64,000 nucleotides of DNA from Acidobacteriota bacterium (lineage in GTDB: Bacteria > Acidobacteriota > CAIWXX01), in NCBI GenBank assembly GCA_040755995.1, contig JBFMAF010000008.1:192001-256000 (forward strand), written 5' to 3'. The notes beneath the pieces were generated by a model. It was not told where the DNA came from and searched no databases. It worked only from the letters and a program-made list of their open reading frames with translations. The position numbers were made by a program, and so were the translations under genes. Positions 10,182 through 23,686 of this stretch are shown in pieces (the stretch's first letter is position 1; each line of letters starts with the position of its first letter).

Positions 10182-11948
10182 TCACAGGATATCGCGCCAT
10201 GGAGGCGAGACCGAGAACGCGGCATGAATGAGGCCGACGTGCGAGTAGGCCTGTGGGAAATTGCCCCACATCCGCCGCGTGAGCGGATCGTAGTCTTCGG
10301 ACATGAGGCCGAGCGGCGAACGAGCCGATAGCGCAGTCTCGAACACAGCCTTGGCCTCCGCGGTTCGACCGAGCGCCGCCAGAGCCTGGGCCAGCCAGAA
10401 TGTGCAGATGGTGAAGGCGACTGAGGGCACACCGAGGCCGTCGTCAGACTGATACCTGAGAACCCATCCGCCGCGGCCGAGTTGGCGCGCCACTGCGTCG
10501 ACAGTGGCGATGAGCCTCTCATCACCGGGCGGCAGGAAGTGCAGCATCGGCAGATTCAATAGCGCAGCGTCCAGATCCGAGCCTCCGTAGGTCGCCGCAA
10601 AACCACCCGGACTTTCGTTCCACGCGCCGGAGAGGATCTCACGACGGATGTTATCCGCGGCGTCGACATAGAACTGCCGCCGCTCCGGAAGGTGTCGCCC
10701 GGCCACCAGCGCCATGCGATCCGCGGCCGCCCAACACATCACGCTGGAGAACGTCTGCGGCCTGGCTTCCCGGCGGTACTCCCATATCCCCGCATCCGGC
10801 GTGCCTGCCACGGATATGGCCTTCTGCGCAAGCCTGTCGATGAGCTCCAACATGATCGACGTCTGTTCCGCCCGAAACCGATCGTCCAGAAACACGGGAG
10901 CAAGGGCCAGGACCAGCTCTCCGAATATGTCATTCTGCCGCTGCCGCGCGGCAAGATTGCCTATGCGCACGGGCTTCTCGTCAGAATAGCCCGCCCAGCC
11001 TTCAAGGACCCTCTCGTCCAAGTCCCCTGTTCCGTCGATCCTGTAAAGCGGGGCCAGATCCAGGTTCGAATTCCCGGCGACTACGTTGAACAGGTACTGT
11101 ACAAAGCTCTCGCGCTCCTCAAACTGCCCCAGCAGGCGGAACGCACCGAGCACGTGAAATGCATCCCTGAGCCAACAGTATCTGTAGTCCCACGTCCGGC
11201 CGCTTCCGGGCGACTCCGGGATCGAAGTGGTGGTGGCCGCGACAATCGCCCCGGTGTCTTCGAAGCAGTGCAGCTTGAGGGCTAGCGCCGAACGGATCAC
11301 TTCTTCCTGATACAGAGGTGGAACGTCGCAGTGCTTCACCCATCTCTGCCAGTACCGCACGGTCTCGGTCAGAAAGCGATCACAGAGCGCAGGCAGCGAT
11401 TCCTCGACACTTGCCCCCCACGAGAGCAGGAAATGACGCCGTTCAGTCAGCGCGAACGGCTGGCCGCCCAGATACGAGAGCGGGACGTCGGTCCAAAGTC
11501 GAAGAGGATCGGCGAAGTTGTCGTATCGGACGTGGTTGGAGCCCAGCACGGCAGAAGGAACGCCGCGGTCCCATCCGCGGCGCGGCTCGCAGTACGCACG
11601 TACGCGCGGCATTCCTCCCAACGGCTCCAATATTCGCACGATTTGGGTGGGGTGAAAGCGCCTTCCATATTGCCCGAAACGGGGCGCAAAATCGATCACG
11701 CGAAACGCTCCGTCGCTCGCCCGAAACTCCGTGACCAGAACATTCGTGTTAGGGAGATACCGTTGCTTCCCACTTTCACCGCCTGCCGGCGCCACGAGGA
11801 AACGCCCGCCGTGGCGGGCGTCGAGCAGGGTCGAAAACACCGGCTCGGAATCGAACCTCGGAAGGCAGCACCAGACTATCTCTCCCGATTGATGCACGAG
11901 GGCCGCGAATTGGCAGTTGCCAATGAGACCCAGTTCTTCGAGTCGCAT
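10182..11948 (-). CDS. Glycoside hydrolase family 15 (trehalase/glucoamylase-like)
   Basis: 'GAIVAATTTSIPE', 'WDYRYCWLRD', 'GIWEYR', 'GNFPQAYSHVG'. Start placed at MRLEELGLIGN. Confidence 0.92.
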   Translation of the reverse strand: MRLEELGLIGNCQFAALVHQSGEIVWCCLPRFDSEPVFSTLLDARHGGRFLVAPAGGESGKQRYLPNTNVLVTEFRASDGAFRVIDFAPRFGQYGRRFHPTQIVRILEPLGGMPRVRAYCEPRRGWDRGVPSAVLGSNHVRYDNFADPLRLWTDVPLSYLGGQPFALTERRHFLLSWGASVEESLPALCDRFLTETVRYWQRWVKHCDVPPLYQEEVIRSALALKLHCFEDTGAIVAATTTSIPESPGSGRTWDYRYCWLRDAFHVLGAFRLLGQFEERESFVQYLFNVVAGNSNLDLAPLYRIDGTGDLDERVLEGWAGYSDEKPVRIGNLAARQRQNDIFGELVLALAPVFLDDRFRAEQTSIMLELIDRLAQKAISVAGTPDAGIWEYRREARPQTFSSVMCWAAADRMALVAGRHLPERRQFYVDAADNIRREILSGAWNESPGGFAATYGGSDLDAALLNLPMLHFLPPGDERLIATVDAVARQLGRGGWVLRYQSDDGLGVPSVAFTICTFWLAQALAALGRTAEAKAVFETALSARSPLGLMSEDYDPLTRRMWGNFPQAYSHVGLIHAAFSVSPPWRDIL

Positions 11949-12251
11949 CGCTTGAGCTATGTGTTCTTCTGACAAGAGCCGACTCCGGCAGAATGCAGTA
12001 TGGGACGCGAGCGCGTATCCTGATGGCACTCTCTCTGCATCCGTGGACGTGAGTGCATGATCGCCGGCTGCATCACCTCTGACCTCTCGTCCCACACCAC
12101 CAACTCATTCTAGCCAGCCCAACGGCAAGTTGGAATGGCGATGCCACCGGACTACGGAACCCGCGGCCATTGACTCGGCGGAACCATCGTCTATCATCAG
12201 TACCTTGGGCATGCGGGCACCTGATCGAGGGCGGACTCTGGAGGACAGGCT

Positions 12252-14513
12252 GTGCGACTGATCTTGCGGTTCATCATGCCGCTGCTTTGCGTGCTCGGCC
12301 TTCTCGTCTGGATCGCCTCCGTCCTCGTGAGCGACACATTCCGGAGGTGGTCGGAGAGGGACATGCGCCTTCGCGCCGACCTGGCGGCGAACAGCGCTCG
12401 TGAGGAGTTGCTCCGTTGTTTGCACCAGAACGACTCCTCCGAGATGTCTCGCGTTCTGGAACAGCTTGTGCGAGACGAGCGGATCATGGGTGCTTCCCTT
12501 TGCGGGTGTGATGGACGATTGATTGCAGCCAGCCCGGAGTTTCCAGCTGGCTACGACTGCAAGTCGGTTGGCGGGCACGTGGTAGTCTCGGGAGGGGTGG
12601 CCGGAGATCCGCCGATGCTGGTTCGGTGGACCGAGGTCAAGGACGGCAGCATCGGCCGGGTGCACGTCAGCGCCATCCCCATCATGGAGAACGAACAGGC
12701 AGCGGGGTTCTTGACCATAGTGCAGGACTTGAGCTTTGTGGCGCGTCGCGAGTCGCAGGTGCGGTTCTTCACGGTGATCGCGTTCACAGTTCTGGCCGTC
12801 TCCGCCTCCGTTCTGACCGTGCTGGTCGCGCGGCTGTCACGACGCACCTGGACGGTGGAAATCAGGCAGATGCTACGCGGCAGGGCTGCTGCGCCTCCCG
12901 AGTTCCAGCCGATCATGCGGGACTTCCGCGAGCTCGTGGCGGAGATCTCGGCGGAAGTTCATGCAGGCGCCCAGGGACGGGTGTGGACGGCCGAGCGGCT
13001 GAGGCAGGTGCTCAGGCAGGAGCTTCACGGCGAACGCGTGATCATCCTCGCAAACCGCCAGCCGTACGTCCATAATCGGGCGAGCGATGGGAAGATCGAA
13101 GTGCAGCACCCTGCGAGCGGCCTTGTCACGGCGCTGGAGCCGATCATGCGAGCATGCTCCGGGGTATGGATCGCTCACGGGAGCGGCTCGGCCGACAGGG
13201 AGGTGACCGACAAGAAGGACTGCGTGCGGGTTCCGCCCGGCGAAGAATCCTACACACTCCGTCGTGTGTGGCTTACGCCCGAGGAGGAGAAGGGGTACTA
13301 CTTCGGATTCGCGAACGAGGGCCTTTGGCCCTTGTGCCATCTGGCCCACGAGCGCCCTGTTTTCCGCAGGTCTGACTGGGCCTATTACCAGAGCGTGAAC
13401 CAGAAGTTCGCTGATGCGCTGGCCGAGGAGATCGACAATGACGACTCGATCATTCTGGTGCAGGACTATCATTACGCTCTGGCGCCATCCATGATTCGCA
13501 AACACGCATCCCGCGCCACCATCCTCACATTCTGGCACATACCCTGGCCCAACTCGGAGAGATTCGGAATCTGTCCGTGGCAGAGGGAACTGCTTCGCGG
13601 TCTCTTGGGGAGCAGCATCCTCGGCTTCCACACGCAGGCGCACTGCAACAACTTCATCGATGCGATTGACAGATACCTGGAAGCAAGAATCGATCGCGAT
13701 CAGCAGGCGGTGATACAGGGAGGGCACAGGACGTTGATCCGGCCGTACCCGATATCGATCGAGTGCCCGAGCCGGTGGATTCGCCATGTGCCGCCCGTGG
13801 CCCAGTGCCGGGAGGAGGTGATCAGCGAATTCAACCTCCCCCGCAACGCCCTGATCGGTGTGGGCATCGACCGGCTCGACTACACGAAAGGCATAGAGGA
13901 GCGGCTGCTGTCGGTCGAAACCCTTCTCGAGAGATTCCCGCAATTTGCAGGCCGCTTCACTTTCATCCAAGTCGCAGCGCCCAGCCGCACGGCCATCGAA
14001 CGATACAAGGCGTATGGGAAGACGATTGAGCAGATGACGGAGGCGATCAACGCGAAATTCCGGCGTGGCGAGTATCGTCCGGTCATCCTTCTGCGCAGAC
14101 ACCACGAGCCGCCCGATGTGATGCGTTTCTACCGGGCGGCCGACCTGTGCTACGTGAGCAGCCTGCATGACGGCATGAATCTTGTGGCCAAGGAGTTTGT
14201 CTCCGCGCGGGATGATGAGCGGGGGGTGCTGGTGTTGAGCCGGTTCACGGGGGCTGCGCGCGAGTTGACCGAGGCTCTCATCGTGAATCCCTACGATATC
14301 GAAGAGGCCAGCTCGGGTCTCGCCGCCGCATTGAACATGAGCGAGGAGGAGCAGAGCGAGCGGATGAGGGCCATGCGGCTGTATCTCACCGAGTTCAATG
14401 TGTACAGATGGGCAGGCAGGATGCTGACCGACGCCGCGCGGCTGCGCCACAGGCATCGCGTCTCGGATCGCCTCATCCCTCATCTCGGTCCAGGAGAGCT
14501 TCCGCTGATATGA
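12252..14513 (+). CDS. otsA: Trehalose-6-phosphate synthase (GT20) with N-terminal membrane/extracytoplasmic module
   Basis: 'SGLVTAL', 'VQDYH', 'FWHIPWP', 'DRLDYTKG', 'DGMNLVAKE'. First ~195 aa contain two TM helices. Confidence 0.9.
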
Positions 14514-15427
14514 TGAACGTTCTCAGCGCCCGCAACCGGCGGCTGATTGGCGAGTTCGCGAGGCTCAATTCGATGCTGGCGCTCGACTTCGACGGCACAC
14601 TGGCTCCGATAATGCGGCGTCCCGAGTCCGCTCGAATGCGGCGCCAAACCAGGGCACTGCTGCAGAAAGCGGCCGCCCTCTATCCGTGCGCTATCATCTC
14701 AGGTCGATCGATCCGAGATCTGAAAACGCGCATCGGCCTGAACGGGGTGACCTCGATGGTGGGAAACCACGGAGCCGAGTGGGAATGGTCACGCCCGGAT
14801 TCCCGTGGGATTGCGCGCGCGAAACGGTGGGCGCAGACGCTCGCGCGCGAGCTGCGCGACTGGCCCGGCGTCGAGATTGAAAACAAGGGGCTCTCATTGG
14901 CAGTGCACTACCGCGGTGCCGCGGATCGCGCGCGGGCCGCGCGGGCAATCAACAGAGCGGCATCCGGACTCGAGGGAACCCATGCGTTCGCCGGGAAATG
15001 CGTCGTGAACATCGTCCCGCGCAATGCGCCGGACAAAGGCACCGCACTCGAGTCAATGCGCCGAATGCTGAGGTGCGATGCGGCGATCTACATAGGCGAC
15101 GATACCACCGATGAATCGGCGTTCCGGTGGAAGGAAAGAGGACGGCTACTGACGGTCCGGATCGGCAAGAGCCGAAGATCATTCGCCGATTTCTATGTTC
15201 GGGACCAGAGGTCCATAGACGCACTGCTGCGGGCGTTGATAAGTGAACGAGAGAAGGCGGCCCCGTGCCGGACCTGCGGATTGATCTACTGCTGCGCCAA
15301 GGCCAGGATAAAGCTCCGAACCGGCCCCCGGTTAGTAGCGACGAGAGGAGCGAAGATGCGGGCGAGAATGCCGCCGCGCCGGAGGACGCCGGCCCTCTGG
15401 AGCGCGATATCGTCATGCCGGTCCTGA
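14510..15427 (+). CDS. otsB: Trehalose-6-phosphate phosphatase (HAD)
   Basis: 'LDFDGTLAP', 'ISGR', 'GNHGAE', 'DKG', 'GDDTTDE'. ATGA overlap with the otsA stop. C-terminus looks extended. Confidence 0.9.
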   Translation: MMNVLSARNRRLIGEFARLNSMLALDFDGTLAPIMRRPESARMRRQTRALLQKAAALYPCAIISGRSIRDLKTRIGLNGVTSMVGNHGAEWEWSRPDSRGIARAKRWAQTLARELRDWPGVEIENKGLSLAVHYRGAADRARAARAINRAASGLEGTHAFAGKCVVNIVPRNAPDKGTALESMRRMLRCDAAIYIGDDTTDESAFRWKERGRLLTVRIGKSRRSFADFYVRDQRSIDALLRALISEREKAAPCRTCGLIYCCAKARIKLRTGPRLVATRGAKMRARMPPRRRTPALWSAISSCRS

Positions 15428-15497: not shown

Positions 15498-16877
15498 TCA
15501 CACTGCCAGCTCTGATCGAAACGGCTGTACCTTGCCGCTGGCCATGCGTTCGCCCAGGGCCGGGTCGAGACGTATATCGATCGGCGACATCACGCCGAAC
15601 AGGGCTGCCAGCCGGCCCGCCAAGGTCTCCGTGTCGACGGAGCCACCCGGAACCGGGCGTAGCGCCAGGTCGCACGAGCCGTCTGCTCGCTGGACAAATT
15701 CGTGCTGGACGATGGGATATTCGCGGATGATTCGCCCGATATCTACGGGGCAGATCGGCGAGCCGTCGGTGGCTCGGAACATCACAGCCTCGCGCGCCTC
15801 CAGATCGAGCAGGCGCGCGGTCACGCGCCCCTCCGCATTTTCTTCGAAGGACATCCTGGCGAAGTCGCCCGTCCTGTAGCGCAGCAGCGGCAGGTACGGA
15901 TTACGGCCTCCGGTCACGGTGATCTCGCCGCGCGCGGCCGGATAGCCGTCGGCGTCCACGACCTCCACGAACACATCGGGAGGAAACACGACCAGGCCGC
16001 GGCCCCCGGGATCCGAGCAGGCCACAGGCCCCGTCTCTGTCGTGGAGTAGTAGTCGATCACGGGGCAACGGAAGTGCGCCTCCAGTCGCGACTTGAGTGA
16101 GGAGCCCAGCGCCACAGCAGTCGAGACCATTGCCGCAGGCCGGATGGGGATCTTCCATCTCATCAGCTCTGCGAACCCCATGGGGTCGCCCGTGAGGAAC
16201 TGCGGTGCCAGGATCGAGAAGAATCGCCGCGCGTTCTCGACGTCTCGCCATCCGCGCGGGTGCAAGTTGACCTTCGCAAACCCGGCCTGGTTCCAGACTG
16301 AGAACACGTTCGCAAACACCACGGTCGTCGCTTGCGCTCCGACATTGAAGCACGCCACGCCATCCGGTCCGAAATGAGGCCGTACACCGTGTTGTTCGAG
16401 CGCATACTCGATCAACGGATGGTTCTGCGCCATCGTGCGCGGGTGATACGGAACGACGATGGCATGTCCCGTCGTGCCCGATGTGTCATATACGATCATT
16501 CGCGAGATGTCCTCGTCCCAGGGCACGATATCTTCGATGCGGGTCGCGATGTCTTCGCGCGCCATCGTCGGGACGAAGGCCCAGTCCCGCTCGAGGTTCA
16601 TCCCTTCTGGAATATGCCTGCGAAACATGCGTGCTCGTGAACGCATCGCGCGCACCCAGTCCAGTATCTGCGGCGACGGCGCGGGCGATCCGCCGGGACG
16701 CTGCTCGAAGAGCGCCCTTCGGTACGCTTCCACCAGCGGCAAATCCTCGACCCTCACCCGGTCGCCCACCACGTAGCTCCAATACGGCGCATCGGGATGC
16801 TGCTGGATCGACTTGAGCAGGCCGTAGCCGGCCTCGGTGATCAGCGGGTTGCGATCGAGCCTGTCCGCCGGAATCAT
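15498..16877 (-). CDS. Adenylate-forming enzyme, phenylacetate-CoA ligase/CapK-like
   Basis: P-loop 'YDTSGTTG', 'YYSTTETG', 'RYRTGD', C-terminal 'SGK'. Confidence 0.85.
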   Translation of the reverse strand: MIPADRLDRNPLITEAGYGLLKSIQQHPDAPYWSYVVGDRVRVEDLPLVEAYRRALFEQRPGGSPAPSPQILDWVRAMRSRARMFRRHIPEGMNLERDWAFVPTMAREDIATRIEDIVPWDEDISRMIVYDTSGTTGHAIVVPYHPRTMAQNHPLIEYALEQHGVRPHFGPDGVACFNVGAQATTVVFANVFSVWNQAGFAKVNLHPRGWRDVENARRFFSILAPQFLTGDPMGFAELMRWKIPIRPAAMVSTAVALGSSLKSRLEAHFRCPVIDYYSTTETGPVACSDPGGRGLVVFPPDVFVEVVDADGYPAARGEITVTGGRNPYLPLLRYRTGDFARMSFEENAEGRVTARLLDLEAREAVMFRATDGSPICPVDIGRIIREYPIVQHEFVQRADGSCDLALRPVPGGSVDTETLAGRLAALFGVMSPIDIRLDPALGERMASGKVQPFRSELAV

Positions 16878-16882
16878 CCTAC

Positions 16883-16919
16883 TCTCTCCGCGTCTCCGTG
16901 TCCCCGCGGCCCCGCGTCC
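16883..16919 (-). repeat. Octamer tandem repeat (GGACGCGG/GGACACGG type)
   Basis: ctctccgcgtctccgtgtccccgcggccccgcgtcc. Confidence 0.6.
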
Positions 16920-16972
16920 ATTTCCTCCATGCTCCTGCGCCGCATTTCACGCACCCCTGGGCGTCTCATGCG

Positions 16973-17548
16973 TCATTCCCTGCTGGCTCGCGCGGCGGCC
17001 TCGCGTGCAGCCTCTTCCCGCATCTTCTCTCTGAGCTTCCGCGCGCGCTCGAGCTGGTCGCGCGTCTCGCGGATGACGGCCTCGCGCTCGACGCTGTTGA
17101 GCGTCTTCAGCCGGTCGTCCGCCTGTGACTGCGTCTCACCCGCGGGACGCAAACCAAGAGCCGCGAGGCAGTGCCGCACAAGCTCCTCGCGTCTATCCGG
17201 GTCAGACACGAACTGGTCTGCCGACACGAGCTGTGAGAGCGGGCCGAGGCCGAGTCTCAGCCATCCGTAGGCATCGGCGGAGAGGGTCCGCGCCTGTTGA
17301 AACCACTCGTCATGCAGCAACCACGCACCGACCAATACCAGCCGTAGCCAGTTCCGCTCCTTGGGCGACCCCTGGAAATGGCGGGACTCGTCCGCGCTGA
17401 CTGGAGCGCCGCCGAGATCCTGCATCAAGTCGGACACGACCGCATCCACATGCACCCCCTCGCCTCCGGTGAGTCGCGGCTCCGACAGGAACTCTGCGGG
17501 GCAGATCGAGAGACGATGCGTCAGTTTGTCGAGTGCAGGGCCTTCCAT
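16973..17548 (-). CDS. Hypothetical helical protein with C-terminal charged coiled coil
   Basis: Co-oriented within the MoxR-VWA operon; protein-like composition. Confidence 0.75.
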   Translation of the reverse strand: MEGPALDKLTHRLSICPAEFLSEPRLTGGEGVHVDAVVSDLMQDLGGAPVSADESRHFQGSPKERNWLRLVLVGAWLLHDEWFQQARTLSADAYGWLRLGLGPLSQLVSADQFVSDPDRREELVRHCLAALGLRPAGETQSQADDRLKTLNSVEREAVIRETRDQLERARKLREKMREEAAREAAARASRE

Positions 17549-17574
17549 GGACCTATGATGAGACAGAAGATCTC

Positions 17575-17991
17575 TTACCGGGGCTTCGGGCCAGGACGGG
17601 CAATGAAGCGATGCGTGAAGTCCCTGTCCACGGCCAGCGCTTCGCGAATGCCCAGCCGCCCCATCACGACGAAGCTAAGGCAATCCACGAAACTGTGGAC
17701 TTGATCCTTGTGGTGCCTGAAATACTCGAAGGCCATCTGCTCTTCGTCGGGCGTTGCCCAGTGAATACGTGCTAGCTTCCCGCCATAGATTCGCTCGCCC
17801 AGACGCGTAGCCTCTTCGTGCCCCAGCTTGCGCGTGAGTGTAATCGTCTAGGCAATAACGTGGTTCGTTGTCAGGAGCACATCCGAGAGCCGGGCACCCT
17901 TGAAGGCTTCGAACACCTCCAGCACCCGATCGTGGTGCTCATCCCTTTCCGAGACCAGGGCGAAGAGGAAACCGGTATCAAGGAAGATCAC
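17575..17991 (-). pseudogene. vapC: PIN-domain (VapC-like) toxin with an in-frame TAG at codon 48
   Basis: Manual translation: MIFLDTGFLFALV...LLTTNHVIA*TITL...SFVDCLSFVVMGRLGIREALAVDRDF. GTGA overlap with the antitoxin. Absent from the ORF track. Confidence 0.85.
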
Positions 17992-18221
17992 TCGCGCGGT
18001 CGCCCGTAAAGGTAATGGTCGTGGTTTTCACTCATGTCGGGTGGAGCGTCCTTGATGAAGCCGATGAGCTCCTCGGCCGCCCTCCAGCCGGTGGGATCGC
18101 TATCGTCCTGCGGCGTAGCCGTGGGAATGAGCACCTCCACCTCGGCGTGCTCTTCGAGGTGCACAGGCTCCTTGGGCTTGAAGACCCCATGTTCGTGAAT
18201 CGCCTTGATTGCCGTGGCCAT
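17988..18221 (-). CDS. Antitoxin, AF2212/DUF104-like
   Basis: 'MATAIKAIHEHGVFKPKEPVHL..HAEVEV', C-terminal 'DMSENHDHYLYG'; lies directly upstream of the PIN gene. Confidence 0.8.
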   Translation of the reverse strand: MATAIKAIHEHGVFKPKEPVHLEEHAEVEVLIPTATPQDDSDPTGWRAAEELIGFIKDAPPDMSENHDHYLYGRPRE

Positions 18222-18343
18222 GCCTTCACCTCGTTCACATTCTAACACAGGCGGTCTGTATGTTGTTCTCCTGAGCCGCCTCACCGAAATCCGGCGGCAT
18301 CCTCTTTGCATTCGTGGCCACAGAGGCCGGCTGCTCTGGCGGC

Positions 18344-20110
18344 TCACTTCCGTGCCTCCGGCACGGATTCATACTTCGCTCGACTGAAGGCGCGGGCGAA
18401 TGCTACGAGGTCTTCCTGTGTCGCAACCAGGTGGACGTTCCAGCCGATCTGGCGCATCCGCGCAATGCCGTCGGCGTAGCAGGACTCCTGCGCCATATGC
18501 AGCACGAACGTGGCTCCTCCGCGCGCCGTCTTCGCAGCCTGCTCGGCGATCTCCCATCCTGTGCGAACTTCGTCTAGCATGTGGAAGATGTCCGAGTCGG
18601 TCACGATCAGGATGTGGGCCGGCCTCGGCAGCTTCTCGCCATCGAGAAACGTCTCCTTCAATCGTAGTATTCCGAACGAATAGCCCGTGCCGAGATAGCC
18701 GGTGAGCACCTTCATGATCTCGTGGTGGTTGCGCGTGAAGCCGTCGGTGCTGGAGTGTTCCCCGGGCTCGCCCGAAAGCGTCACCATGACTTTGGCGCCC
18801 ACCCTGAGAGCCGACAGCGCGATGATCGCGCCTGCAAGCACCGGATAGGATAGATTGTGCTTGGGATTGAACATCGAGCCCGAGCAGTCGACGCCCAGGT
18901 AGAGATCCACCGGCAGGCGCTCGGGCGAGCTCCCCTCGCTGGTCCCATAGACTCGCTCGACCGTGGTCACTCCCGGAATCACGTGGGGGCTTTTGGTCAG
19001 CGACTCCACCCAGTCAACGTTCTGCAGTGGCGAACCCGCGTCCCAGACGTCGACCCCTTCCGGCAGCGGGTCCTGCGCTTCCTTCACCTCGCGCACCGGG
19101 AAGCGCACCAGGTGCGGGGTCGCCAGCTCGCGGTAGTACCGGATCACCACTTCGTTCTCGCTGAGCTTGACGCCGAGGCTGTCCATGAGCTCCGTGTATT
19201 GCTTCGGCGAACGGTACTGGTTCTTCCTCCCGCCCTTCTCCGCCCTCCCTCCGGCCTGAGGGGAGCTCGAGTCGGATTCCGCTTCCAACCCGCTCAGCTC
19301 CGGGTCTTCCGCCGGATGAATCGCTCCATCGATCTCCGACTCGTCGATTTCCGCCAACCCGTCCGGGATCGAACCACCCTCACCGGCGCGCTGGGTGTCC
19401 AGCCAGGGCGTAAGCACGCCGGCGATCTTCTCCGTCTTCAGCTCCAGCAAGTACGGCAGCAGCAGGCAGGCGAAGCGCCCGGCGCCGTCGAGCCAGTCCT
19501 TCGCATACGCTCGTACGACGCGCGCGCCGAGCTGCGCGTCGCACTGTATCTGGCGATCCTCGATCGCATCCACGAGCTCGCCCGAAGGGAGGCTCCAGAG
19601 CACCTCGTACATCCGCATGTATAGCTTCCACAGGCGGTCTGCATCCGGCCGCTTCAGTTTCCTGTATACCTCCTTCATCTTCAGGCCTGCTGTTCGCTGC
19701 AGGCGATCGTTGATCAGCAGGTCCGTGTAGAGGTTCGACACGAGCGGCGCGAAGCTCTCTCGCGTCGGCAGCCCGGCCCGAATGTGTGCCAGCAGACGAG
19801 CGTTGTCGCGAAGGTCGGCCGGCGCGAGCACGTGATGGCCGACCTCATGCGCCATGATCTCCACCGGGAACGTCTCCAGGCCCAGCTCGCGCACCTGCTT
19901 CAAGCTGATGACGATCGCATGATCATCGAGACGGATCATCGCGAACGAGTCAGTGAGGTGCTCGGCCTTGTCATCCTTCTCGTTCAGACACCAACGGGGC
20001 TCGGTCAGCTTGGTGAACGGACTCCACGCGGCGAGCGCCTCCGGCCACCGCGCCTGCCAGTCGTCCAGCAGGCCCGCCAGGTCGCCTCCTCCGATCACCG
20101 GCCACTTCAC
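18344..20110 (-). CDS. HEXXH metallopeptidase-like domain + C-terminal VWA (MIDAS) protein
   Basis: 'MAHEVGHH'; MIDAS 'VDCSGSM'...'GT'...'IVTDSD'; start overlaps the upstream stop (GTGA). Confidence 0.85.
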   Translation of the reverse strand: MKWPVIGGGDLAGLLDDWQARWPEALAAWSPFTKLTEPRWCLNEKDDKAEHLTDSFAMIRLDDHAIVISLKQVRELGLETFPVEIMAHEVGHHVLAPADLRDNARLLAHIRAGLPTRESFAPLVSNLYTDLLINDRLQRTAGLKMKEVYRKLKRPDADRLWKLYMRMYEVLWSLPSGELVDAIEDRQIQCDAQLGARVVRAYAKDWLDGAGRFACLLLPYLLELKTEKIAGVLTPWLDTQRAGEGGSIPDGLAEIDESEIDGAIHPAEDPELSGLEAESDSSSPQAGGRAEKGGRKNQYRSPKQYTELMDSLGVKLSENEVVIRYYRELATPHLVRFPVREVKEAQDPLPEGVDVWDAGSPLQNVDWVESLTKSPHVIPGVTTVERVYGTSEGSSPERLPVDLYLGVDCSGSMFNPKHNLSYPVLAGAIIALSALRVGAKVMVTLSGEPGEHSSTDGFTRNHHEIMKVLTGYLGTGYSFGILRLKETFLDGEKLPRPAHILIVTDSDIFHMLDEVRTGWEIAEQAAKTARGGATFVLHMAQESCYADGIARMRQIGWNVHLVATQEDLVAFARAFSRAKYESVPEARK

Positions 20111-21144
20111 TTGCCTTCAACCTCGGCAATCAGGAACAGGTGGTGGCTCCTGGGCAGCGTGACGGCAAGCGTCGCCGCCGTCGAGGCGCTGCTGCTGGAT
20201 TCGCATAGCTGCTCGAAGCACGCCTTCAGACGCCCCTTGGCCACCGATCCATCGGGGGCGATCCGAAGTGCAGGATGGGGATCGGGCCCGATGCCCTTCG
20301 GGAGGTCCCGGCCGAAGCGCTGGAACGTCGCCCCGAAGCAATCTGCGTGAAGCGTCCAGCAGCACTCGCTGTCGAACACGTAGAACTGACCGTCCACGGC
20401 GGTGACCTCGGGTGGAGCAATGAATGGTCCGCCGAACCCGCGGAATCCGCCCGGGCGGGCTACCAGTGCCAGCTTCCGTCCCGCGGGTTTCACAAGGTCT
20501 GGGCGGGGCGTCCACCAGGGATCCTGAAGCGCCCGGGCCAGCGATGCCGCCGGCGCGGATGCTTCGATACCCAGCGCAGCGGACTGGAGGTGCGCGGGCA
20601 ACTCCTTCCATGTCCTCAGCGCGCTCGCCCGGTAGTGCGCCATCCCGCTGCACCAGGCCGCCACTTTGCCCGCATCGAGAAACTCCGACGTGCTGGTACA
20701 CAATGGTGCGATCGCCGTCATCCGATCGATCCAGTCGCGCGGCCGCGCGCCCGGCTCGTTCGACAGGTTGTACACGGCGTTGGAGATGAGGGCGATCACG
20801 AGCCGCGGGTTGTCGGCCACAAACGGCGCTGCGACGGGAAGTAGCCGGGACCATGCGACGGTCATCATGGGATATCGCGAATTCGATCCGAGGCAGTCGT
20901 GACCGAGGAGCTCCAGCGAGCCGTCGTAGAGCGCCGCCGCCACCTCATCGGCCTGATCTCCTCGCACACCGGCGCACGCACGCACGATCGGATCGACCAA
21001 CGATCTCAAGAGCCCCAGGAACTCCTCCGGGTCGAGGCGGCGGTTCAGGTGTCTCGCCTGGGCGAAGCGCCGGTTGAATTCGGCCCGGTTGCGATCGAGG
21101 GCCTCAGCGAACGGGCCTTCGATCCGCTCGCCCTTGCCATCCAC
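20107..21144 (-). CDS. Hypothetical protein (helical N-terminus, beta-rich C-terminus with GGFRGFGGPF)
   Basis: Lies between MoxR and VWA genes and is translationally coupled to the VWA gene. Confidence 0.75.
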   Translation of the reverse strand: MDGKGERIEGPFAEALDRNRAEFNRRFAQARHLNRRLDPEEFLGLLRSLVDPIVRACAGVRGDQADEVAAALYDGSLELLGHDCLGSNSRYPMMTVAWSRLLPVAAPFVADNPRLVIALISNAVYNLSNEPGARPRDWIDRMTAIAPLCTSTSEFLDAGKVAAWCSGMAHYRASALRTWKELPAHLQSAALGIEASAPAASLARALQDPWWTPRPDLVKPAGRKLALVARPGGFRGFGGPFIAPPEVTAVDGQFYVFDSECCWTLHADCFGATFQRFGRDLPKGIGPDPHPALRIAPDGSVAKGRLKACFEQLCESSSSASTAATLAVTLPRSHHLFLIAEVEGK

Positions 21145-21170
21145 AGCCCCGACTCCTCAAAGCGCACCAG

Positions 21171-21205
21171 TCAACTGACCACTGTCAACCGACAACTGAC
21201 AACTG
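21171..21205. repeat. Heptamer tandem repeat (consensus ACAACTG) x5
   Basis: tcaactg accactg tcaaccg acaactg acaactg. Confidence 0.75.
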
Positions 21206-21206
21206 C

Positions 21207-22802
21207 TCACCCCTTCCACTCCAGCCATTTCAGGTAGTTCGTGTACCGTTGATGGAAGTACTTGAGCTTCAGAATGTCGTCGAACATGTGCCCGTAGAAC
21301 TTCCGGCCCTTCGTCCATTCGCGCAGAGTCCGTTCGATCGAGACGAGCCGGTTCCGCACTTCCTTCTCCGAGAGTCCTTCGAGCCCTTGTTCGAACTGGG
21401 TCTCAAGGGTGGTGACCGGGTCGGTCTTGTCGAGGTTCAGCCGCTCGTACTCGCGGCACGAGGCGTCGAAGAGGGCGCGAATCCACGTGATGCGATCGAT
21501 GCGCAGGGCGCCGTTCTCCGGTTGTTCGAAGAACGGCGAGTCCGGGTTCTGTATGAGCTTGTCGTGGAGTACGAACGGCAGGATCTGCCGGATGTCTTCG
21601 AAGCAGACCTCGCGTGCGCCGCGCAGGTAGGCCATGGCTTTTACGAAGACGAGGCTCGTCATCAACGCGCGCACGGAGAGCCCGTTCTTGGTCTGGCTGC
21701 CGAGATCCGCGACCTGGTCCTTGCCGGTCTCTTCGCCCGCGAGCGTCTGGAAGTCCACGGCTGCCAGCTTCACGGTGTCCTTGGTCATGTACTCGACCTG
21801 TTTCGCCGCCGGCTCGAAGAACTCGAACTGGCTCGCAAAGAACTCGATGCGGCGCCGGAGCGGCGCCGGGAGCTGCACCTCCAGGACCTCCTTGTTCGCC
21901 CGATCCAGCTCCTGCTCTGTGAAGATGATCTGAGGCGGCACGACCTCCTCAGGGCGCACTCCCGCTTCGATTCTCAGGAGCAGCTCGTTGAGGAAGCGGG
22001 TGTTGAAGTGGAGCGCCTTGACGACCACGTCGATGCGGTCTCTGAGCGCCTCGATGACCTGGTAGGTGCCTCCGCCGACGTCATCGTTGGCGGTGAGGTA
22101 CCAAGCGCTCTCCGGGCATTCGAATATCTGGTCATAGATCTCCGCGTAGTTGTCGGCCATGACGGTCAGTAGCGCCGATTGAGTGCGCGTCGGGATGCGA
22201 TTGTACTCATCTATGATCTTGATCCGCATGCTCAGCCAGCGCCGCCATGCGATCTTGACCGCGTCCATCGATTCGGCGGTGACCAGTGTCGACGGCAGCG
22301 GATTGCCGAGCAGATCGGCGATGGTCATCTGCGGCTGGCCGTGCTGGATCGAACGCTTGATCTCGCGGAGCTTGTAGCCGGAGACGACACCCATGAGGAT
22401 GGCGACAGCGGTCTTGCCGCGGCCCGGGCCGCCGACAAGCAGGCAGCGGCGCCGCGCCGCAAGGTTCAACAGCGGAAGCAGCACGTAGCTCGAGTAGCTC
22501 TGGTCCGAGGGCAGGTTGAGCGTGACCTTGCGATCGCCGAATTGGAACTTCTGCGGCGGCGTGTCGTTGTACTCGATGTCGTAGAACGGACTGATGATGG
22601 CGTGGTTGGTGATCCAGAAGTAGGCCTGCCGGAGCTTCTCATCCAGAGGCTGACGGACCTCCTCTCGCGCACCGCCTGCGGCCAACGGGCCGGTGTAAAG
22701 CTCGGCCACGTCGAACTGCTTCGGGCCCGGAGCCGCCGCCGGCTTGGTCGGTGCCTCGGAGACCTGCTGGAAATGTTTGAGATCTTTCATGGGCTGCTCC
22801 AT
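21207..22802 (-). CDS. MoxR-like AAA+ ATPase
   Basis: Walker A GGPGRGKT, Walker B IIDEYNR, 'TAN', Arg finger 'EALRDR', 'SVRA'. Confidence 0.88.
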   Translation of the reverse strand: MEQPMKDLKHFQQVSEAPTKPAAAPGPKQFDVAELYTGPLAAGGAREEVRQPLDEKLRQAYFWITNHAIISPFYDIEYNDTPPQKFQFGDRKVTLNLPSDQSYSSYVLLPLLNLAARRRCLLVGGPGRGKTAVAILMGVVSGYKLREIKRSIQHGQPQMTIADLLGNPLPSTLVTAESMDAVKIAWRRWLSMRIKIIDEYNRIPTRTQSALLTVMADNYAEIYDQIFECPESAWYLTANDDVGGGTYQVIEALRDRIDVVVKALHFNTRFLNELLLRIEAGVRPEEVVPPQIIFTEQELDRANKEVLEVQLPAPLRRRIEFFASQFEFFEPAAKQVEYMTKDTVKLAAVDFQTLAGEETGKDQVADLGSQTKNGLSVRALMTSLVFVKAMAYLRGAREVCFEDIRQILPFVLHDKLIQNPDSPFFEQPENGALRIDRITWIRALFDASCREYERLNLDKTDPVTTLETQFEQGLEGLSEKEVRNRLVSIERTLREWTKGRKFYGHMFDDILKLKYFHQRYTNYLKWLEWKG

Positions 22803-23091: not shown

Positions 23092-23397
23092 ATGGTCGTG
23101 TTTGAATGGGATCCGAGCAAGTCGCGCATCAACAGACGAAAACACGGCATCAGCTTCGATATGTCACGGCGCGTGTTCGAGGATCCAGATGCGCTCAGCG
23201 TGCACGATCGAATCGAGGATGGCGAACGGCGATGGCGGACGTTGGGGATGGTGGGAGGCGTCTTGCTCGTGTTGGTCGCGCATTCAGTGAGGCAGGAGGG
23301 CGACGATGAGGTCATTCGGGTCATCTCAGCGCGCCGCGCGGATCGCAAGGAGAGGAGACGGTATGAGGAAGCACGTCAAGTCCGTTGCACGCGTTAG
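23092..23397 (+). CDS. brnT: BrnT-family toxin
   Basis: 'FEWDPSKSRINRRKHGISF', 'GERRWRTLG', 'IRVISARRA'. Confidence 0.9.
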   Translation: MVVFEWDPSKSRINRRKHGISFDMSRRVFEDPDALSVHDRIEDGERRWRTLGMVGGVLLVLVAHSVRQEGDDEVIRVISARRADRKERRRYEEARQVRCTR

Positions 23398-23686
23398 ACC
23401 CTTGACGGCGAAGCAGTGCCGAGAGATAGCTGCCCTGGCCGCGCGGCCAGACAGTGAGATCGATTACACGGACATCCCGCGGCTCCCTGAGGCTGTGTGG
23501 AAGAACGCTGTCAAGAATCCCTGGTACCGGCCACTCAAGCAGCAGTTGACCGTCAGACTGGATGCTGATGTCGTCGGCTGGCTGCGAGCCCGGGGCAGGG
23601 GATACCAGACCAGGATGAACGCGCTGCTCCGAGACGCGATGCTCAAAGAACTCGCCAAGCGCGGTACCTCCAACCGAAGATCGTGA
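23363..23686 (+). CDS. brnA: BrnA-family antitoxin
   Basis: 'IDYTDIP', 'KQQLTVRLDADVVGWLR..GRGYQTRMNALLR'; overlaps brnT. Confidence 0.9.
   Translation: MRKHVKSVARVRPLTAKQCREIAALAARPDSEIDYTDIPRLPEAVWKNAVKNPWYRPLKQQLTVRLDADVVGWLRARGRGYQTRMNALLRDAMLKELAKRGTSNRRS

Follow-up and report, generated by a model that had tools for sequence, protein, structure and literature searches.

A 64,000-nt stretch of contig JBFMAF010000008.1 from an Acidobacteriota bacterium (hereafter the window, meaning the whole stretch analysed) encodes a conserved cassette of five genes. Their products are a MoxR-like AAA+ ATPase, a protein without known family (u345), a protein that joins an N-terminal HExxH zincin-type domain to a C-terminal von Willebrand factor A (vWA) domain, a second protein without known family (u191) and a divergent PaaK-like adenylate-forming (ANL) enzyme. 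The five genes form a real cassette, as their recurrence in the same order across contigs and phyla is far beyond chance. It belongs among the systems centred on a MoxR ATPase and a vWA protein, and u345, u191, the ANL enzyme and a link to NAD salvage set it apart. A literature search found no description of, or assigned function for, this cassette, and PADLOC gave nothing usable, in line with an earlier sequence-only reading of the window, which held that no characterised system matches it. We propose, with a probability of roughly 0.3, that the cassette is a protein-tail processing machine acting on the C-terminal tail of u191.

The cassette was followed through loci gathered from two relatives of the same family, a species-genome collection and metagenomes (53 loci), by searching six-frame open reading frames (ORFs) with the window proteins and then with profiles built from the hits. 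Scanning the species-genome collection with a single protein yielded two true loci, L006 and L007. Left out of all counts were L001-L003, which duplicate the window, L004 and L005, and L008-L010, which are spurious 50-residue matches in Paenibacillus; the vWA gene had to be flanked by 3 kb or more upstream and by 2.5 kb or more downstream. By phmmer, MoxR was present in 32 and u345 in 29 of the 35 loci with a sufficient upstream flank, and u191 in 20 and ANL in 21 of the 27 with a sufficient downstream flank. All four partners of the vWA gene were found in 16 of the 25 loci with both flanks, or in 18 of 25 when profiles were used. The ligase and the 191-aa gene, whose lack of conservation beside the MoxR/VWA pair in other genomes the sequence-only reading had named as the outcome that would count against it, are thus conserved there. 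The order MoxR, u345, HExxH-vWA, u191, ANL and the strand are constant, with the five genes colinear in L004, L005 and L007, and complete loci include one in a metagenome-assembled genome (MAG) of Kiritimatiellae.

The seven exceptions among the 25 loci are of several kinds. Two carry MoxR-u345-vWA only (L033 and L051, the latter also with a 6-kb insert), one has u191 without ANL (L011), one has the vWA gene alone (L015), two have a broken vWA gene (L028 and L050), and L061, a distant variant, has three additional ORFs without a known family. Outside these seven, L012 carries the first three genes only. In L061 (11663-16193) the vWA protein is 25% identical, and the ORFs between the vWA and ANL genes encode 707, 408 and 203 aa without a Pfam family, the 408-aa product matching the u191 profile weakly (6e-5). 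In L016 (7415-8395) and L025 (1390-2505), MoxR and u345 are separated by an extra gene with a product of 327-372 aa. Its two copies are mutually related (1e-110), and both show a weak C-terminal match (5e-5) of nucleoside 2-deoxyribosyltransferase-like type.

The cassette consists of two modules. Module A comprises MoxR, u345 and the zincin-vWA protein, and module B comprises u191 and the ANL enzyme, sometimes with a twitch-type radical S-adenosylmethionine (SAM) protein. u191 lies directly upstream of ANL and the two are duplicated together, with L011 as the exception noted above. L005 (in genome G002) has two tandem u191-ANL pairs, and the window genome has a second, unlinked pair on contig C11 (63731-66806; L080 9723-12819), followed by a radical SAM gene. 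The C11 pair has an ABC-2/Wzt exporter on one side and DsbD on the other, and neither a MoxR nor a vWA gene lies nearby. In the ANL tree, the window copy groups with those of L004, L007, L013, L048 and L023 (99/99 support). The C11 copy belongs to the other large clade, apart from the window copy, and the two L005 copies are sisters (99/97). A full-length radical SAM gene lies directly between the vWA and u191 genes in L031, L036, L039 and L045; the L005 copy is located after the first ANL and before the second u191, and partial copies are present in L038 and L050. Its product has a CX3CX2C motif and four further invariant cysteines, and in NCBIfam it matches peptide and protein maturases best, and cofactor maturases as well, in every case at scores far under the cut-off. 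Because module A occurs alone in L012, L033 and L051, and u191 without ANL in L011, module A does not depend strictly on a nearby module B.

The central protein of module A carries two motifs that the sequence-only reading had picked out, an HEXXH motif and the metal-ion-dependent adhesion site (MIDAS) of a vWA domain, and both are invariant among homologues. AHEVGHH (residues 87-93) and DCSGS (408-412) are kept in 17 of 17 aligned homologues, and in the same alignment T455 and D505 are invariant and complete the MIDAS; HExGHH and DxSGS are each found in all 120 of the top database homologues. The window protein has no match in Pfam (E ≤ 0.01), NCBIfam or PADLOC. Pfam VWA_2 matches 2 of the 17 homologues (best 5.6e-4), and the C-terminal half of the Atlas model aligns with vWA clusters (template-modelling scores, by row, of 0.66-0.68). 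Matches to peptidase families are weak, with M48 in 1 of 17 homologues (E 0.11) and a SprT-like family in 1 of 17 (E 0.17), and a profile of the protein found no match below E 0.5 among PDB sequences. The Pfam pair DUF2201_N and DUF2201 has the same layout, a putative metallopeptidase ahead of a vWA-like domain; membership of DUF2201_N (PF13203) was rejected, as there was no match at E ≤ 1e-3 in the window genome or in the two family relatives.

The zincin-vWA protein is single-copy in its 7.7-Mb genome and has at least 2589 homologues (E ≤ 1e-3) in a large protein collection. Clustering at 50% identity gives the family 890 clusters at E ≤ 1e-3, or 280 under a threshold of E ≤ 1e-30. Full-length identity of the top 120 homologues is 55-72%. 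Homologues come from MAGs labelled Thermodesulfobacteriota, Myxococcota, Bradymonadales, Kiritimatiellae, Acidobacteria, Nitrospinota and others, and the few that are named are labelled 'VWA domain-containing' or hypothetical. An archaeal origin, at which an AF2212-like match in the window had hinted, was rejected, as the closest named homologues are bacterial. Among 40 relatives of the window genome, the gene is present in both genomes of the same family and in none of the 38 from other families of the phylum. This patchy spread, together with 55-72% identical homologues in several phyla, indicates horizontal transfer.

Two natural fusions, each in a singleton cluster, involve this protein. 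P0121 (927 aa) joins u345 to the zincin-vWA protein. P0176 (1114 aa, on 2 contigs) joins a T4 Rnl1-type RNA ligase domain (PF09511, 1e-37) to a full-length zincin-vWA protein of this family (31% identical), a hint that the zincin-vWA adaptor can also pair with an adenylating ligase of a different kind. One search looked for longer, fused versions of the vWA protein and returned none; as evidence this is weak. No relatives of the zincin-vWA protein or of the P0176 fusion were found in IMG/VR, and tblastn of the vWA protein against 50,697 phage records and 72,556 plasmids gave no match; P0176 matches phages through its RNA-ligase part only.

The ATPase scores above the Pfam cut-offs for AAA_3 (33.1 bits, cut-off 27), AAA_lid_2 (27.8, cut-off 22.7) and AAA_5 (22.6, cut-off 22). 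Its Walker A motif GGPGRGKT (124-131) and Walker B residues D198 and E199 are invariant in 21 of 21 homologues, over which mean column identity is 69%. With the Pfam core and lid, the Walker motifs and a vWA partner gene in the operon, it belongs to the MoxR class. The protein also carries conserved extensions of about 110 aa at each end, and the window copy is 66-79% identical to those of L004, L005, L006 and L007.

The enzyme of module B, first read as a PaaK/CapK-like ANL ligase, is indeed of this kind, as a divergent member. It matches Pfam AMP-binding at E 3.9e-6 (26.4 bits, below the 29.9 cut-off) and a DVU_1553-family ligase model at 4.3e-22, far below the cut-off for that model. Against the NCBIfam PaaK equivalogs it scores 20-36 bits versus cut-offs of 646-700, which places it outside them. 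The best PDB match is the PaaK structure 9s3l (E 2.2e-6), and the PDB alignments cover residues of about 250-390 only, at E 2e-6 or weaker. Most of the TSGTTG loop is conserved, G134 and G137 being retained in at least 90% of 20 homologues. Y277, E281 and D338 (of RYRTGD) do not vary, the G361-R362 pair is conserved and so, for the most part, is the C-terminal lysine. We take the protein as a divergent superfamily member because of these core motifs and the PaaK matches in the PDB. Compared with PaaK-type enzymes (PDB 9s3l, 4r1l and 6siw), it shares the core adenylation motifs and the short form of the ANL fold; it differs in aligning only partially, in scoring far below the equivalog cut-offs and in having an N-terminal extension of about 110 residues, which is conserved and specific to its family.

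The two proteins without known family are predicted to fold confidently, and their models match no solved fold. u345 has no Pfam, NCBIfam or PADLOC match. Its AlphaFold2 model (predicted local distance difference test score, pLDDT, 94.8; predicted template-modelling score 0.91) comprises helical repeats, which make up one domain (11-206), followed by a small beta domain (223-343), and Foldseek found nothing in the PDB at E ≤ 1e-3. With VIA-align, only the beta domain showed any resemblance, to WD40 blades (best Z 8.6, root-mean-square deviation (rmsd) 3.9, 112 residues aligned), and this Z falls within the range that VIA-align calls common. Neither family scans nor structure comparison matched u345 to an NTPase or FtsH. 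u191 likewise has no family match. Its AlphaFold2 model (pLDDT 95.6) is all-helical with a final helix of about 40 residues (152-190); Foldseek against the PDB gave a best E of 0.49 and nothing at E ≤ 1e-3, VIA-align a best Z of 5.5 (rmsd 4.2, 92 residues aligned) and Atlas no usable match. A survey of 29 stop-delimited u191 C-termini (27 in the gathered loci, the window copy and that on contig C11) found RE at the very end of 23 and a final E in 2 others. Tail type varies together with ANL clade. Three prediction runs for a complex of ANL and u191 scored 0.56, 0.00 and 0.00, which gives no verdict either way.

The link to NAD salvage was examined by clustering of flanking ORFs, NCBIfam scans and a phmmer sweep. 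A nadR-like gene is the immediate neighbour of 16 of the 18 complete cassettes and pnuC of 14, with the pair placed either just after ANL or just before MoxR. It is missing at L007 and L031, and also at the ANL-less loci L011, L012, L033 and L051. PnuC exceeded the TIGR01528 cut-off of 42.45 bits in 7 of 7 copies scanned (61-112 bits). The nadR-like product, of adenylyltransferase/kinase type, matches TIGR01526 at 115-283 bits (E 1e-33 to 1e-84), below the equivalog cut-off of 341. In L004, the closest relative of the window, the pair abuts ANL convergently, at the place where the window has trehalose genes. The window genome has its pnuC and nadR-like gene at C8:111334-112835 (L081 and L082), about 95 kb away on the same contig.

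We favour tail processing because the ligase and the radical SAM protein flank the acidic-ended u191 and a motor with a MIDAS/zincin adaptor completes the set. Most economically, module B would make or mark something on u191 and module A would handle the product. A carboxylate, either on the conserved ...RE tail of u191 or destined for it, would be activated by the PaaK-like ligase. The acidic tail would likely dock at the MIDAS site of the vWA domain, and would be pulled by the MoxR ATPase and cleaved by the HExxH domain. The MIDAS site of a vWA adaptor typically binds a carboxylate. We infer that u191 is the client and its tail the recognised part, and likewise the order of the steps and the tie to nicotinamide-riboside/NAD salvage.

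Several observations weigh against this proposal. u191 is well folded and conserved along its whole length (mean column identity 49%), unlike the small, fast-diverging precursors of peptide-processing systems, and the model shows its tail as the last part of a long helix. Six of the 29 tails differ from the common type (SREW, FED, SQV, ANY twice and VGY), and shared descent explains the co-variation of tail type with ANL clade equally well. Characterised ANL enzymes are known to act on small acids, and a protein substrate for this one is conjectural. The window-type clade has no adjacent radical SAM gene, and some loci, noted above, keep MoxR-u345-vWA only (L012, L033 and L051) or u191 without ANL (L011).

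A more specific form of the proposal is tail editing or tagging by an ANL enzyme, which in its full detail we regard as improbable. In it, the ligase would activate the terminal Glu of u191 or join something to it, by a logic like that of Pup and ubiquitin or of tubulin tails; in some lineages the radical SAM protein would first modify the tail, the MoxR/vWA-zincin unit would read the tail through its MIDAS and remove it, and the whole would be coupled to nicotinamide-riboside/NAD salvage. Pup-PafA-Mpa, tubulin tyrosination and RimK follow a tail-directed logic of ligase, peptidase and AAA+ motor, and are invoked here by analogy only. The likeness would lie in a conserved acidic C-terminal end and in an ATP-dependent ligase, an AAA+ motor and a peptidase being encoded together. 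There is no relation in sequence or fold, the ligase here is of ANL type and not glutamine-synthetase-like or ATP-grasp, and conjugation is hypothetical in this cassette.

Two further explanations concern the role of the cassette, not its mechanism, and are compatible with the tail model. The first, which we hold to be possible though doubtful, is a conflict system against phages or other mobile elements, in which MoxR-vWA would be a threshold switch, the zincin an effector and the pnuC/nadR-like genes a means of restoring NAD during or after depletion. The patchy distribution, with close homologues in several phyla, would fit such a system, as would the NAD-salvage link, the variable flanks (L012 adjoins SNF2 and type I restriction genes), the extra gene of L016 and L025 with its weak deoxyribosyltransferase-like match and the existence of described MoxR-vWA conflict systems (PMC7159879). 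The window copy is also flanked by a BrnT/BrnA pair and has been invaded by a vapBC-like pair; the sequence-only reading had taken these neighbouring toxin-antitoxin modules as compatible with a conflict role, but they are local accidents, and the vapBC-like pair is absent from all relatives. Against a conflict role stand the flanks elsewhere, which although variable are mostly housekeeping genes, the lack of relatives in the viral, phage and plasmid collections searched, and very high conservation, most marked in MoxR, with no variable effector or sensor part. PADLOC-DB 2.0 gave only a 27-residue P-loop match to IetA (E 0.0033), with nothing for the other five proteins.

The second is a maturation or metabolic module, a reading that we hold to be as probable as the first. 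MoxR-vWA would insert a metal into, or remodel, an enzyme, in the manner of NorQD, CbbQO, CoxDE and CobST; the ANL enzyme, the radical SAM protein, the nadR-like protein and PnuC would make or salvage a pyridine-nucleoside-type molecule, and u191 and u345 would be scaffold or specificity subunits. MoxR/vWA pairs do act in metal insertion and enzyme remodelling, according to PMC9976466, PMC13036017 and a cobaltochelatase preprint. The near-constant nadR-like and pnuC neighbours agree with this reading, as do the cofactor maturases among the radical SAM matches (far below cut-offs), a degree of conservation that fits an enzyme complex and ANL motifs that are those of enzymes adenylating small acids. 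It is weakened by the invariant HExGHH of the vWA protein, which is not a known feature of such maturation pairs, by the lack of a conserved target enzyme encoded nearby and by a nadR-like product that scores below the NadR equivalog cut-off. The cassette is moreover absent from most relatives and therefore serves no core pathway. Finally, MoxR-u345-vWA and u191-ANL might be unrelated modules that came to lie side by side by chance, without shared function. Such a reading could draw on the solitary module B on contig C11, the solitary module A of L012, L033 and L051 and the toxin-antitoxin insertion that separates the modules in the window, but is very improbable given the same order and strand in 18 of 25 loci on contigs from different sources and phyla.

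Comparison with described MoxR-vWA systems sharpens what is distinctive here. In the classical pairs NorQ-NorD, CbbQ-CbbO, RavA-ViaA and CobS-CobT, a hexameric AAA+ motor likewise acts through a MIDAS-bearing vWA adaptor. They differ in that no target enzyme is evident beside this cassette. The adaptors of those four pairs are not known to carry a peptidase motif, and the target enzyme that they serve is known and encoded close to them. Group 2.2 jumbo phages encode, according to PMC7824862, a MoxR protein and a vWA protein with an N-terminal metallopeptidase domain, and thus share with the cassette a MoxR gene beside a HExxH-then-vWA protein. The role proposed there is in virion assembly; tblastn found no phage homologue of the vWA protein studied here, and the cassette adds u345, u191, ANL, sometimes the radical SAM gene, and pnuC with the nadR-like gene.

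Further parallels in outline come from PMC7159879. In the systems described there, MoxR-vWA can be coupled to a zincin that cuts a C-terminal peptide from a precursor, the precursor having a conserved motif at its C-terminus; a radical SAM enzyme, likely to modify a peptide, is mentioned as well. The VMAP/iSTAND/FtsH ternary conflict systems resemble the cassette in combining MoxR and vWA with a conserved third protein and in their patchy distribution. They are unlike it in that the vWA domain of the cassette runs to the C-terminus, with no C-terminal effector array, and in that u345 is a helical repeat with a beta domain and shows no NTPase or FtsH match, VMAP being compared by its description only. 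Like the cassette, the FxSxx-COOH module includes a zincin and a protein whose C-terminus carries a conserved motif, and some versions have a radical SAM enzyme. Here, by contrast, the zincin is fused to the vWA protein, and u191 is a folded 191-aa protein ending in ...RE and not a small, variable FxSxx peptide. The passages of PMC7159879 compared here mention no ANL ligase or NAD-salvage genes, and NadR, PnuC, AMP-binding and PaaK are absent from two of its supplement files.

MoxR/vWA machines are widespread, and the client is known for only a handful. Here u191, as candidate client, is encoded side by side with a ligase, a protease motif and, in some lineages, a radical SAM protein, so the proposal is directly testable. 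If tail processing proved true, ANL enzymes would be a new enzyme class for the modification of protein C-termini; were the conflict reading true, the cassette would be a new NAD-linked immune module. It is highly conserved across phyla, and holds two orphan folds and an unexplained, near-constant link to the uptake of nicotinamide riboside and the synthesis of NAD.

In the window, the five co-oriented genes described by the sequence-only reading all lie where it had placed them, with GC content at third codon positions of coding type (0.78-0.86), and the GTGA overlap that it reported, in which the stop of the u345 gene overlaps the GTG start of the HExxH-vWA gene, can be read directly at 20110-20107 (Table 1). 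The description of a five-gene operon holds for the genes and their recurrent order; what it overlooked is a vapBC-like pair between the third and fourth genes. This pair, and not a spacer, makes up the 795-base stretch at 17549-18343, shares the strand of the cassette and splits modules A and B physically. Its PIN toxin gene is disrupted by an in-frame TAG (17850-17848) and its AF2212-like antitoxin gene is intact. Because no toxin-antitoxin pair lies between the vWA and u191 genes in any related locus compared, we regard it as a later insertion with no part in the cassette. A scan between the cassette genes found no sigma-70-type promoter and no convincing terminator, and a search of sequencing runs found no RNA run carrying the locus and three DNA runs only, from one study and with small shares.

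Table 1 Cassette genes and the inserted vapBC-like pair, with positions in the 64,000-nt window of contig JBFMAF010000008.1
Feature	Position	Strand	Description
MoxR-like AAA+ ATPase	21207-22802	minus	531 aa; Pfam AAA_3 and AAA_lid_2 over cut-offs
u345, no known family	20107-21144	minus	345 aa; no Pfam, NCBIfam or PADLOC match
HExxH (zincin-type motif) N-terminal domain and C-terminal vWA	18344-20110	minus	588 aa; invariant motifs
AF2212-like antitoxin	17988-18212	minus	PF01954, 7.5e-9; insertion, outside the conserved cassette
PIN-domain (VapC-like) toxin, broken	17575-17985	minus	PF01850, 3.8e-8 with the stop read as X
u191, all-helical (predicted), no known family	16973-17548	minus	191 aa; conserved C-terminal [KR]x[ST]RE end
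PaaK-like ANL (adenylate-forming) enzyme	15498-16877	minus	459 aa; divergent, weak PaaK-type matches

Both sides of the cassette in the window are occupied by other genes. Just upstream of the MoxR gene and divergent from it lies the BrnT/BrnA pair, with the BrnT toxin at 23092-23397 (plus strand; PF04365, 1e-22) and the BrnA antitoxin at 23306-23686 (plus strand; PF14384, 1.9e-16). Convergent with the 3' end of the ligase gene is a trehalose set (10182-15427) comprising a GH15 glucoamylase/trehalase-like gene, OtsA (GT20) and OtsB, in which the OtsA ORF has about 260 residues ahead of its GT20 domain.

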